From: Stegostoma tigrinum | Taxonomy: Eukaryota | Assembly: GCF_030684315.1 (NCBI RefSeq) | Contig: NC_081391.1 | Span: 20,110,629-20,174,628 of the forward strand | Length of the DNA: 64,000 nucleotides | Direction of reading: 5' to 3' | Shown: positions 215 to 63,978 of the stretch, one piece after another | How the letters are laid out: every line of letters begins with the position of its first letter | Position numbering within the stretch: position 1 is the stretch's first letter | The notes under the pieces: generated by a model | The model's database searches: none | Told to the model about the DNA's origin: nothing | The model's input: the letters and a program-made list of their open reading frames with translations, nothing else | Program-made: the position numbers and the translations under genes

Positions 215-1191
215 CTTGATGTCCTACAGGAGGACCCAGCACCCACATTCATTCTGGAATGCCATCAGTTTCTCAGCTGTTCCCATTCCTTCAAGGAGTA
301 GTCCCATGAGAACTCAGCAAAGTGACACAGGGCAACATCTTCCCAGTAAAAGTGAAAGGATTGTAAACAGGGAAACCCATTGGGGTTTGCTGTTAAAGAT
401 CCTTCTCTACTTGAAATGCTTCTTCAGTCAGGCCTGCAGGTTCTGGAAGGGAAAGCCTCCCTTGTCAATCACAACAAAAACAACACCAGAATATGTGGAG
501 GCTCTTTCCTTGTAAAGCAGGAGGGAAGGGAAACAAGCATCTTCCTACAAGTTGGGGGGGGGGGGGGGGGGGCGGCGGCGTGAATATTTCATACTTGACT
601 CCAAATATTAAGCATTAAATGACACCTCATCATTCTGAAAGGCCATATGGTTTAGTGAAAATGGCTCAGCTTCAGTGAGGAAACCTTCCAACACAGAACA
701 GAGTTCCCCACTCTGAAGTGAACTTACAAAGTTTACTAGTAAAGTATTGACAGCAAATAGACCCAGAGATTGAGAGTGTTCCTTCCTCTGGGATTGGAGG
801 TCTTGGGTCACATATGTTCTAGAAGTAAGAGATCAGGTCTCTGGGCAGATTGACTTACTCTAACTATTCAATAGAATAAATCCAATTACATTGAACAAAA
901 GAAAAACAAACAGACTTCTCAGGTCAGACATCAAGATCAAACCATTGAAAGATTATTCACTTCTCAACGTCAGGGGAAGGCCACAGAAGATTCTAACATG
1001 AATTGAATGATGCAGAGAGATCCTACACCCACAATACAAGGAGACCACAGCTTTAAATCTGAAATAAATCCAGAGAACACCACAATCACCATGGAGAGAT
1101 AAACATGGGAGAAAGAAAGCACCAGGTTGATCTGCTTGTTAACAACACCCTCACAGTCCTTGTGGTAGCTCTGATGCACCTGGGAGGCCAT
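215..1191 (-). pseudogene. Ferritin locus A, pseudogene (exons 1-2 visible; exons 3-4 would lie left of the window)
   Basis: Exon 1 at 1191-1090 reads [34 protein letters not shown] (ferroxidase Glu24 changed to Val), followed by a GT donor. Exon 2 at 360-215 is 146 nt instead of 147. Its acceptor reads CAA rather than CAG, it carries a 20-bp inversion at 290-309, and a 1-bp deletion near 277 leads to TGA. Confidence 0.9.
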
Positions 1192-1260
1192 CCTCACTAT
1201 TGCTGCTCACAATCACTTGGACAACTCTAGAACTGAGTCTCCCTCCCACAAGCTCTTGTA

Positions 1261-1415
1261 TTTATACTCCAGAGACCATCCTGCACCAACCAGGGAATGA
1301 CATCACTAACAATGATTGACAATCTCTGACAGCCAATCAGGAATCTGCAAGAACCCAGTCACCAATGAACAGAGGAGGAGGAGAGTGGGGCAATGTGCTC
1401 AGACCCAGAGTCAAT
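1261..1415 (-). promoter_or_regulatory. Promoter of locus A (TATA box plus inverted CCAAT-type boxes)
   Basis: TATAAA at 1266-1261, 75 nt from the ATG. Plus strand carries GGGAATGACATCA and AGCCAATCAG, homologous to the other promoters. Confidence 0.7.
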
Positions 1416-60707: not shown

Positions 60708-63457
60708 CTTCACTACTCCTGCTCACTATCACCTCAACACCTCCAGAACTGAACTCCTTTCCTACGAACTCTTTTCTTTATACTCCTGGGTCATCCTGCA
60801 ATCAGCCAGGGAATGACACCACCAATGATGACAGCCAATGAGGAATTGGCATGCATCCAGGCACCAATGAGGGGAATGGGGTGGAGTGAGATACTCAGAG
60901 CCAATCACAGTTTTGAAATGGCAGCAAATCTGTGATTGGTCCCAGGAGCTGAAGGAAGCCTGAAGGTGACTGGGGGCCAAAAGCAATGTGTTGACTTTTA
61001 TCTTGCTTCTGGAATGGCGTCAGGCCACTCGGCCTAACAGCAATTACGAATGGATATCAGTGGTTGGCATCATTAGCAACAGCCATATTCTATGAAATGA
61101 CTGAAACAAAACTCACTCCAGGGCCAAAATCAGAGTAATGTACTCCACATATAGTATATTCTGTACTGCATACAATATTGACATAGCCTGTACATTCTAG
61201 TCCTCTCCCTCCATCGAGATGATGACTAAACTGCTGTGAGCCTTTTCAGTTCAATTTTGCTGCAGACTGTGAGTTTTTAAGTCATTTCTACACATGGTTT
61301 CCTAACTCTGTGCTTTTCTTCAGTTCCTAGCTCTGTTTCTTTGACAAAACTCTCATTTATCTTGGTGCAAGTTTGCTTTTCCTCACATGTTATTGATGTT
61401 GTTGATAATATTCTGCCTGTTTATGGTACTATCGTGCCAACTGATAGAATGCCATCAGGAAGCGTGAGAGAGATCTCTATTCTTTTGTCAATGTCACATG
61501 GAAATATATGGACGTCAGAGGACCCTGTGGGGAAGAGACAGAAACATCGAAACCCAGAACACAAGGGCAGGCGGAGGCCATTCAGCCGTTTGAGCCTTCT
61601 CCACCATTCTATATGATAATGGCTGATCCCAGCAAACCCAACAGTGTGTTCCTGCTTTCCCTCCATATCGTTCGATCCCTTTAGCCCCAAGCACTAGATC
61701 CAACAATTTGAAATCAATGCTTTGGTCTCAACTGTGTACCGTGGTTGCAGATTCCACAGGCTCTCCCACTGTCTTGGTGAAGAAATGTAATAGCCCATCC
61801 ATGACACCAGGTTACACACAAATTGCCGATCGACAGTCAGATACCGACCTGTTTCGGAGAGTCCACAGTCAGTGTGTATCAGTTTGCTGTTTGGGATGAT
61901 AAGTATTTTGACTAAGTAACACATGCATTTCTGCATTGACTGGAGATTAATGAAGCTTAGGGCTTGACGAGTAAAGTTGCCAGCAGCAAGGAATCAGATG
62001 TCGCCCTGGCCAAAGATGTTTCACAGTTAGTGTCTGCGAAATGATTAGAACTTTTGGCAATCCTGGTGGGTTGATGCCAATCTATTATGTAAACACCTGA
62101 CTTACACACTGTCCCCCACGCCCTTGCAGAGTGAGCCTGAAGCAGATTTGTCCCAGACCCTGAATGCGGTAACAAGGTCCTTCCTGATCTGTTACTACTT
62201 AACATTGCAGCTGACAGAGACAGATGGGGATCAAGAGCAGAGGAAACATTCAACTGTGTTCTGAAGCGTCACCGTACTTGAAATGCTTACTCGGTGTCTC
62301 TCTCTCTCTCTCTCTATGGATGCTAGCGGACTAGCTGAGTTTCTCCAATAATCTGTTTTGTCTCCAGGTTGTCAACATCCACAAATCTTCAGTCCCACTT
62401 GCAACGCTTGGAAATGCCCGACAGATCCGAACAAAGACTGTAGTCACAAGCTAATGGACATTATCGTTAAATGTTGAATGCAGAAAGTCACCTATGAATT
62501 ATACTGCAACTTTGCATTCATTTCAGCTACTTTGGAACTAGTCTAACGATGACCACAAAGCTGTTGTTGGAGAAAGCCCACCTTATCGACTCATGTCCTT
62601 GACCGATAGAGTGAGGATATGGAGTTAGGCCAGTAAAAGGAAGCAGCTTGTATTCTACAAGAGAAACCCAGTACAAGAGAAACCTGGGTCCCCTCAGGCA
62701 TGAATTGAGCAAAGCTCCGATTGAGATATTAAGCATTTCCCTTTGCTTTTATGACCAAAGGATCAGAGTGTGGAGGCTGATGCAGCGGCAAGAGTATCGC
62801 ACACTGTGCCCCTAAGAATAACGTAATTCAAACTCTCCTGAGAGTAATCTGGAATTTTTTAAAATGAAAAAAAGGCACTCTTTCATCTCCCTCATTTAAA
62901 CTCTTACTTGCTAAGGTTTCAGAAGCATGTGCTTAGCTCTGATTGTTGAGCAAGACATGCAAGCAGATTGTCCAGTTAGAGCCTTGTGGCTCAAGTTAAG
63001 GGATACCCTAGCCAGTTTATGGCAAAGGAGAGGTTTAACCTCCGGCACAGGTCATGCACTAGCATTCGTTAGGCTGGAATGCAGTGGCTACTGAATGAAA
63101 AGAAAGCTGAACCAATTAAAGGAAGAGACAGATGTGCAGTCAGGTTTTCAGGAGCTGAGAAAAAGGCAGATGCACTAGTGGTGTGGAAGGAAAACCTGCA
63201 GGATTGTATTAAATGGCAGACAGGAGTCAAGGAAGCTGATGGCCTACATTCAGACCCCTGCCTTGTACTTCACTGTAGCCACATCACGGGGGAGGGGGGG
63301 GGGGGCAGGAAGGTAAATGTTTGATGATCAGTCTAGGAATTAGTTACACAGGAGAACGTAGTTGAGTGAATATTTTATTTCCACATGCAGCAATAGAGAA
63401 ACCGATACAAATAATTCTGCTTTCATGTACAATAGTGAAGCAATTCCAAACTGCCAC

Positions 63458-63978
63458 TCAGCTGAGTGTGAGCCTGTCAAACAGGTACTCTCCCATGCCA
63501 TTGGCAGGGGCTCCCAGTCTCTTCAGGTTGGTGATGTGATCTCCCAGCTTCTTGATCATCTTCACTTGCTCATCCAAGTAGTGCCTCTCCAGGAAGTCAC
63601 ACAGCTGGAAGAAAAAAAAATGTTAAGCATTTTCCTTCGCATTTCAAAGCTCAGCCATCCTCTAGTCCAGAGGAGACAGATGCAAATTCACTAAATCACA
63701 GGAAGTGTACAACAGCATCATAGATACACTGTTTATGGCACCATGGAATGGAGACATGAACAGGGCTATTCAAAGTGGACACCATTCGATTCGGCTCAGA
63801 TAATCCTTCCAATTTAACCCAAAACAGAAGTGCTTCAGCCTGAAAAACTCACATGAGGGTCCATGTGGCCAGAGGAGAGTTTGTGCAGATCCAGCAGACT
63901 CTGGTTCACATCCTTCTCCATCTGCAGAGCTCTCTGCATTGCCTCCAGGCCACTGCCCCATTCATCCTGCTCTGGCTT
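63458..63978 (-). CDS. Ferritin locus L, exons 3-4 (5' part outside the window, status unknown)
   Basis: Exon 3 at 63978-63853 ([10 protein letters not shown]...LSSGHMDPH) and exon 4 at 63604-63458 are both open. Intron 3 and the 3' flank match locus F. Confidence 0.8.

Follow-up and report, generated by a model that had tools for sequence, protein, structure and literature searches.

Ferritin loci in the analysed window

The window, that is, the whole 64,000-nucleotide (nt) stretch of DNA analysed in this study, spans C50:20,110,629–20,174,628 of the zebra shark genome (C50 is NC_081391.1) and lies within an array of intron-containing ferritin genes that is real and far larger than the window itself. 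Exon-by-exon BLAST with the exons of the gene at 5805–8900 returned eight matches to exon 1, eight to exon 2, nine to exon 3 and eleven to exon 4, all on the minus strand and with E-values of 1e-28 to 1e-75, far past chance, and these resolved into 12 ferritin loci. Six loci are intact genes of 173 amino acids (aa) with GT-AG introns and exons of 102/147/126/147 nt; the others comprise one gene frameshifted in exon 2, three fragments and two loci cut by the edges, the left edge splitting a pseudogene and the right edge a gene found intact from the adjoining sequence. An earlier note, made from the letters of this stretch, had described 12 loci, six of them intact, in an array open at both edges, and BLAST and the gene models bore this out. 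Its statement that exon sizes are identical holds for undamaged exons and fails at three loci with insertions or deletions (41386–41533, 215–360 and 19807–19951), and the common orientation that it reported applies to all 12 window loci, whereas the whole array switches strand five times.

According to the gene models, the intact genes, all on the minus strand, lie at 5805–8900 (introns of 710/796/1068 nt), 12923–15243 (where Glu replaces Val beside the ferroxidase Gln), 24440–26673, 33181–36147 (the exon 2 of which served as query for the homologue and PDB searches), 46963–49280 and 58470–60707; the last two are duplicates of the genes at 12923–15243 and 24440–26673, with coding differences of 0.6% and 1.2%, respectively. 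The damaged loci lie on the same strand. A four-exon pseudogene at 40201–42355 carries a 1-nt insertion in exon 2 (148 nt, 41386–41533) that shifts the frame, and the pseudogene at 215–1191 retains exons 1 and 2, with an exon 2 of 146 nt (215–360), a non-AG acceptor and stops, its exons 3 and 4 being located by BLAST and gene model just left of the window. Exon-4-only remnants occupy 19807–19951 (145 nt, with a 2-nt deletion; high-copy repeat DNA stands at the expected place of exons 1–3 in the gene model and depth table) and 53831–53977 (open frame). The locus at 29414–29933 consists of exons 3 and 4 without exons 1 and 2 (BLAST and gene model), whereas its duplicate at the right edge is complete: exons 3 and 4 of the latter lie at 63458–63978, and the whole gene at C50:20174086–20176227.

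Much of this arrangement is repeated. BLAST identified a 20-kb multi-gene segment at 9862–29953 and a second copy at 43902–63998, 98.5% identical and offset by 34,040 bp, each carrying four loci; about eight copies exist in the left block of the array. The two stretches are one duplicated segment, so the 12 window loci are not independent. Inverted exon-3 fragments (58 nt, 79% identity) were observed on the plus strand at 18809–18863 and 52833–52887, downstream of the pseudogene class, and recur along the left block. High-copy repeats, probably pieces of long interspersed nuclear elements, ride in the duplicated segments (2689–4120, 20267–22700, 38226–39154 and 54294–56700) and sit where the exon-4-only remnants lost their upstream exons. 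An Rfam scan of the window gave no match, and a tandem-repeat finder reported three short arrays only.

Extent and assembly of the array

C50 was read continuously from 19.881 to 21.695 Mb except for 33 kb of N, and a gene was called intact only if it had exact exon lengths and GT-AG introns, which is a conservative definition. By these gene models the array comprises 242 ferritin loci at C50:19.949–21.556 Mb (~1.6 Mb), of which 192 have four exons and 122 are intact (100 of 173 aa and 22 of 175–176 aa). The other 120 are broken or partial, in keeping with the birth-and-death turnover that had been proposed from the window. Median spacing between loci is 6.7 kb, and the loci fall into six strand blocks. 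Nested duplications of 15–49 kb at 95–99.7% identity and a mid-array inverted duplication were detected, and recent duplications of 30–50 kb (98–99.7% identity) bring pseudogenes along.

That much of the array is an assembly artefact, with haplotypes or read errors laid out in tandem, was weighed against read depth and divergence. Long segments in the right block are 99.0–99.7% identical, and an unplaced 267-kb contig (C216, 130 kb of it read) holds further copies and matches C50 at 99.2% over 59 kb; this contig may be a second haplotype, and its copies were left out of the array count. The depth test used contigs from four runs of one public DNA sample, which may be the assembled individual, and the long-contig median depth in a single-copy stretch was 5.0–8.7 across the runs. 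Segment spacers reached 5.2–6.1 times single-copy depth, suggesting five to six copies against the approximately eight assembled. However, about eight distinct segment copies are impossible from two haplotypes; their versions differ by 243 substitutions against 21 gaps, and the transition/transversion ratio between them is near 1, the same as in 93%-identical pairs. Moreover, at one exon-3 site the summed contig depth was 158–242 times single-copy depth in the four runs, compared with 228 exon-3 matches on C50, which is agreement in scale and not a measurement, since summed contig depth is not a copy number. Array depth agrees in this sense with the assembled scale, and the depth check proposed in the earlier note left the array standing; we regard a largely artefactual array as very improbable. 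Between duplicated segments of the left block (C50:20.0–20.4 Mb) the transition/transversion ratio was ~1.0, below that of usual vertebrate neutral DNA.

Identity of the array genes

Exons 2 and 3 each pass the Pfam cut-off for Ferritin (PF00210) alone, and a database protein of the array type scored 138 bits; the products are 173–176 aa long. The nearest named database proteins belong to the zebra shark, bamboo sharks and the whale shark. NCBI models called 'ferritin heavy chain A/B-like', 'middle subunit-like' and 'oocyte isoform-like' are the same proteins (88–96% identity over exon 2 in carpet sharks), the names following the best hit and varying from copy to copy, and two of the models (P0003 and P0006) fuse neighbouring copies.

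The shark has a separate, single FTH1 gene on C20, which bears an iron-responsive element (IRE), has a bestrophin gene opposite it and falls with tetrapod H chains in the tree; human FTH1 likewise adjoins BEST1. The array genes do none of the three: they do not group with tetrapod FTH1, carry no IRE and have no bestrophin neighbour. Nor are they FTL (L-chain) genes, as the ferroxidase ligands are retained. The shark's own L-like gene is also a single gene apart from the arrays, at C50:21.66 Mb, 0.1 Mb from the array end; it is without ferroxidase ligands, and its best structure match is frog L ferritin. RUVBL2 (C50:18.55 Mb) and BAX (C50:26.43 Mb), neighbours of FTL in humans, are located on the same chromosome, a linkage on the megabase scale only. 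On chromosome and adjoining L-type gene, the array fits an FTL-locus (M/L) gene cluster. Glycogen synthase, used as another marker of the FTL locus, was found on C20 and C33, with no copy found on C50. On C20 a glycogen synthase gene was observed ~0.9 Mb from FTH1 (18.05 Mb and 18.98–19.04 Mb), unlike in humans, where GYS1 is paired with FTL.

Array proteins are 74% identical to both IRE-bearing shark genes, 75% to bullfrog M and 68–73% to mammalian H chains. A phylogeny of the kind suggested in the earlier note was built in FastTree with FTH1 and amphibian M chains and without mammalian FTL, using 13 of the 104 distinct array proteins and leaving out P0092, P0095, P0062, P0067 and P0126 (long branches or odd models). 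The array genes and the sister class described below formed a shark clade (support 0.984; all supports are FastTree local values) separate from FTH1 and sister to amphibian M chains together with reptile genes (0.908). On these comparisons of sequence, the array genes are a shark clade near the amphibian M chains and are neither FTH1 nor the L-like gene.

Bullfrog M and amphibian 'heavy chain B' are among the closest known ferritins: bullfrog M (PDB 1MFR and its variants) was the best match of exon 2 among solved structures, and the 3-fold channel and transit residues are shared. The array departs from bullfrog M in having Met at Asp140, Lys in place of Arg23, Cys at position 6 (118 of 122 proteins), no IRE and hundreds of copies.

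A second array and other ferritin genes

A second array lies 5.5 Mb from the first, on the plus strand at C50:12,987,143–14,403,987 (L198–L200), and contains at least 150 loci. It was defined with P0142, a protein 74% identical to the array type: all 150 listed exon-1 matches fall there (91–100% identity), as do at least 133 exon-4 matches. Among the 15 listed members in correct register, 12 carry a signature in which Lys replaces the Glu62 ligand, Glu replaces Gln141 and Lys replaces Arg23; 17 stored proteins of three carpet shark species share it. Lys in place of the Glu62 ligand is the L-chain state and cripples the ferroxidase site, and the second-class subunit is predicted to have weak or no ferroxidase activity. 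No IRE was found at the three second-class loci examined.

Four single, divergent ferritin genes stand at the right end of the first array: one bears an IRE, one is the L-like gene, and there are two others. At C50:21,591,488–21,601,909 (L038–L040) an intron-containing ferritin was observed with an arginine-rich N-terminal extension of ~60 residues that has no acidic residues and resembles a mitochondrial targeting sequence; a similar stretch lies inside a horn shark model (P0001). Mammalian mitochondrial ferritin is intron-less. In a single divergent ferritin at C50:21,570,729–21,580,354 (L036–L037), which the tree does not place, Gln replaces the His65 ligand and Lys replaces Glu61. Elsewhere in the genome there are six ferritin copies that have no introns and are mostly interrupted by stops (C11:45.82, C2:16.74 and 140.65, C5:51.55, C43:36.44 and C17:12.13 Mb), and only the C17 copy was traced to its parent gene.

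Residues and selection in the array proteins

Active-site positions were matched to the H/M-type reference ligands E27, E62, H65, E107 and Q141 plus Y34 and E61, and the corresponding ligand, transit and channel positions of frog M and human H were taken from the accessible text of PMC10114856. All seven ferroxidase residues (Glu24, Tyr31, Glu58, Glu59, His62, Glu104 and Gln138, counting Met) are present in 121 of the 122 intact genes, and the 3-fold channel residues are likewise kept. By its ligands the array subunit would be a catalytic one of H/M type, with predicted ferroxidase activity and 24-mer assembly. The position of frog Asp140 is occupied by Met in 120 of the 122 and by Ile in two, as well as by Met in 45 of 46 database shark proteins; Asp is rare there elsewhere too, occurring in one of 51 non-array proteins.

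Of the cleft residues with which FTH1 receives NCOA4 (A19, N22, R23), N is kept, Lys replaces Arg23 in 121 of the 122 proteins and Asp replaces Ala19 in 111. The database shark proteins agree (Lys in 40 and Arg in none of 46; Asp in 39 of 46), whereas all 51 of the other proteins, of H, M and IRE type, have Arg there. Together with Met at the Asp140 position, these two substitutions are hallmarks of the clade. In the available text of PMC11076521, Ala19 and Arg23 form part of the wall of the cleft that binds NCOA4, and binding is abolished by A19Y and by R23A. The shark NCOA4 gene is located on C49; a degenerate ferritin-binding motif, all but three residues of it from PMC11076521, gave 66 genome matches and none on C49.

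The 122 intact genes encode 104 distinct proteins with a mean identity of 93%. The ratio of non-synonymous to synonymous differences (pN/pS) is 0.31 pairwise and 0.40 on distinct variants, and purifying selection, as judged from these coding differences, acts on the array. The number of distinct proteins, the variants that recur at position 60 (Arg in 93, Gln in 15, Trp in 14) and the two C-terminal lengths are what a diversified subunit family would present, in which copies with distinct properties mix into many kinds of cage. The high mean identity, nearly invariant key sites, a pN/pS well under 1 and the grouping of copies by species and not by ancient subtype all speak against such a family, and we consider it improbable. 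The suggestion in the earlier note of a family of co-assembling subunits finds no support inside the array, the copies of which are functionally uniform, but may hold between it and the second array.

Distribution and evolution

Proteins of the array type were found in 14 elasmobranch species, covering carpet, ground, mackerel, bullhead, saw and cow sharks and a sawfish, in database clusters of 127 and 138 proteins. In the accessible text of a preprint on the Greenland shark (10.1101/2024.09.09.611499), 155 'FTL' and 179 'FTH1' copies are reported. About 80% of these fall into three clusters that have syntenic counterparts in the white shark, and more than 85% of the clustered copies are full-length. 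The expansion is old, shark-wide and already in print in brief, which lowers the surprise of the present array; the view that it is lineage-specific must be abandoned. The Greenland and great white shark clusters resemble those described here in having hundreds of mostly full-length ferritins in a few large, old clusters shared between sharks. The preprint labels its copies FTL/FTH1, at least 90% like the human proteins, whereas the zebra shark array is 68–73% identical to mammalian H and apart from the true FTH1; in the portion of the text available there is no mention of IREs, ferroxidase residues or homogenisation.

Among the literature on shark ferritin arrays that was located, this preprint alone was directly relevant, and no paper was found pairing 'zebra shark' with 'ferritin'. 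IRE loss, orthology, two subunit classes and exon-limited homogenisation were likewise not found in searches that covered subscription papers thinly. A parallel in fish is fthl27 of the hadal snailfish, which is also a tandemly amplified ferritin other than FTH1; according to the accessible text of PMC10746142, it has 14 recent copies active in most tissues, in contrast to the ancient shark array of ~240 copies.

Exons and introns of the array have diverged very differently. When introns were compared between four window genes that are not duplicates of one another, 15 of 18 pairs scored near shuffled sequence and the other three differed by 5–15%, whereas fourfold-degenerate sites differed by 12%. 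Intron similarity forms a mosaic along the array genes, and in the tree the copies cluster by species or order, not by ancient subtype. Homogenised exons with mostly unalignable introns would fit repeated unequal exchange and conversion through exons, atop birth-and-death turnover; selection on synonymous sites may also contribute to exon likeness.

The same turnover raises the question of whether only a few copies matter, the large number having accumulated because tandem DNA is unstable and selection on it weak. The broken or partial half of the loci, the 30–50 kb duplications that drag pseudogenes along and the nearly neutral singleton variants (77 non-synonymous versus 34 synonymous) would all be expected in that case. 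Yet many copies persist in distant shark orders, the Greenland and white shark clusters are syntenic and largely full-length in the part of the preprint seen, the same chromosome acquired another array of similar size, and the ferroxidase residues are kept almost without exception. We therefore think it unlikely that most copies are such a by-product.

Regulation and transcription

Three methods detected no ferritin-type IRE in the array. A pattern scan for an IRE-like stem in the 400 nt upstream of the 199 genes with an exon 1 scored none, while the control gene scored. A covariance model run over 185 distinct sources (~1.9 Mb) found only its two training sites; having been built from these two shark IREs, it was bound to find both, a circularity that affects neither the pattern scan nor the Rfam model. 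The genome-wide search with the Rfam IRE family, in which 82 candidates were scored, returned the same two sites and none in the array. These two, the only ferritin-type IREs found in the genome, lie at L040:4796–4831 (minus strand) and L178:1249–1285 (plus strand), and the gene carrying the one on C50 is a single-copy ferritin that sharks and rays have conserved. The array genes thus appear to have no IRE, while two single-copy ferritins have one.

In the pooled array genes, the compact upstream region, exemplified by 36148–36350 on the minus strand of the window, contains inverted CCAAT boxes (ATTGG) and a TATA-like box ~75 nt before the ATG, from which a transcription start can be inferred, and lacks an IRE. 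ATTGG occurs upstream of all 122 intact genes and the TATA-like box upstream of 89, mostly 75–77 nt before the ATG, which would give a leader of ~50 nt; these counts are descriptive, coming from related copies and without a shuffle control.

The C17 retrocopy (12.13 Mb) is 5'-truncated and intron-less, with exons 3 and 4 joined exactly, and is 95.3% identical to an array gene over exon 4 and the 3' untranslated region (UTR). Such a spliced copy implies that the germ line has at some time produced spliced mRNA from at least one array gene. Oocyte-type 3' UTR signals were considered as a shared feature of the array and rejected as not general.

Proposed function

According to the accessible text of the Greenland shark preprint (10.1101/2024.09.09.611499), the largest ferritin cluster of that species is ovary-specific. 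The idea of high dosage in one tissue, raised from the window alone, fits this cluster and the near-uniform array proteins, although the tissue is that of another species. Our favoured reading, held with modest confidence, is that the array supplies the ovary or egg with a storage ferritin at high dosage and independently of iron, in cages that probably combine the catalytic subunit with the second class. Unequal crossing-over and exon-limited gene conversion would maintain the array, and copy number would substitute for IRE control in reaching high output. Subunits of the two arrays are predicted to join in 24-mers of H/L type, in which one class oxidises iron while the other helps to store it. 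This iron store would supply large yolky eggs and sustain a long embryonic development. Yolk ferritin is said to occur in snails.

The mammalian FTH1/FTL heteropolymer is similar in combining a catalytic with a (here predicted) non-catalytic subunit and in its four-exon genes. FTH1 and FTL of mammals are single, IRE-controlled genes; by contrast, the examined copies of both array classes lack an IRE.

Several points weigh against a storage ferritin of the egg. Ovary expression is borrowed by analogy from the Greenland shark. In the text available from PMC5568229, the lymphomyeloid epigonal organ encloses the shark ovary and immune transcripts are present in ovary RNA; expression called 'ovary-specific' may therefore not be that of the oocyte. 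Among 54 3' UTRs with AATAAA within 600 nt, a signal like the cytoplasmic polyadenylation element was present in seven, and there was no common oocyte translation signal. Met at position 141, in place of the Asp140 ligand of frog M, means that activity may differ from that of the model enzyme, and both the mixed cage and the lost activity of the second class are predicted from primary structure. Finally, selection on any single copy appears weak, with half of the loci broken and rare variants near neutral.

Instead of provisioning the egg, the array might serve the epigonal organ, where immune or antioxidant cells would use it to withhold iron or to limit oxidative damage. Shark ovary samples include epigonal tissue (PMC5568229, accessible text), overexpression of the tandem fthl27 of the hadal snailfish lowers reactive oxygen (PMC10746142, accessible text), and the ferroxidase site is intact. 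The C17 retrocopy, however, needs array mRNA in germ-line cells, and we judge the epigonal role to be doubtful.

A stronger form of the egg-storage reading can be stated only tentatively, and we think it rather unlikely in full: a dedicated egg ferritin encoded by two IRE-free arrays (~3 Mb, a tenth of the chromosome), built of oxidising and ligand-lost subunits with the NCOA4-binding Arg replaced in both, made without iron control and resisting lysosomal turnover until used by the embryo. Resistance to turnover is weakened by the 86% NCOA4 binding that R23L retained in pull-downs (PMC11076521, accessible text), and, as Lys keeps the aliphatic chain of Arg23, caution is due in deducing a loss of NCOA4 binding from R23K.

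Significance

Ferritin is a textbook low-copy gene under iron-controlled translation, and the approximately 400 intron-bearing copies of the zebra shark, IRE-free in those examined, would represent another solution, in which output is set by copy number and tissue-specific transcription. The analysis corrects the FTH1/FTL labels of shark ferritin clusters and offers a clean case of homogenised exons against turning-over introns. It also makes testable how large-egged sharks load iron for long embryonic development. If the dedicated egg ferritin were true, vertebrates would possess a system of yolk ferritin, and the H/L division of labour would have arisen a second time, independently of the L chain.

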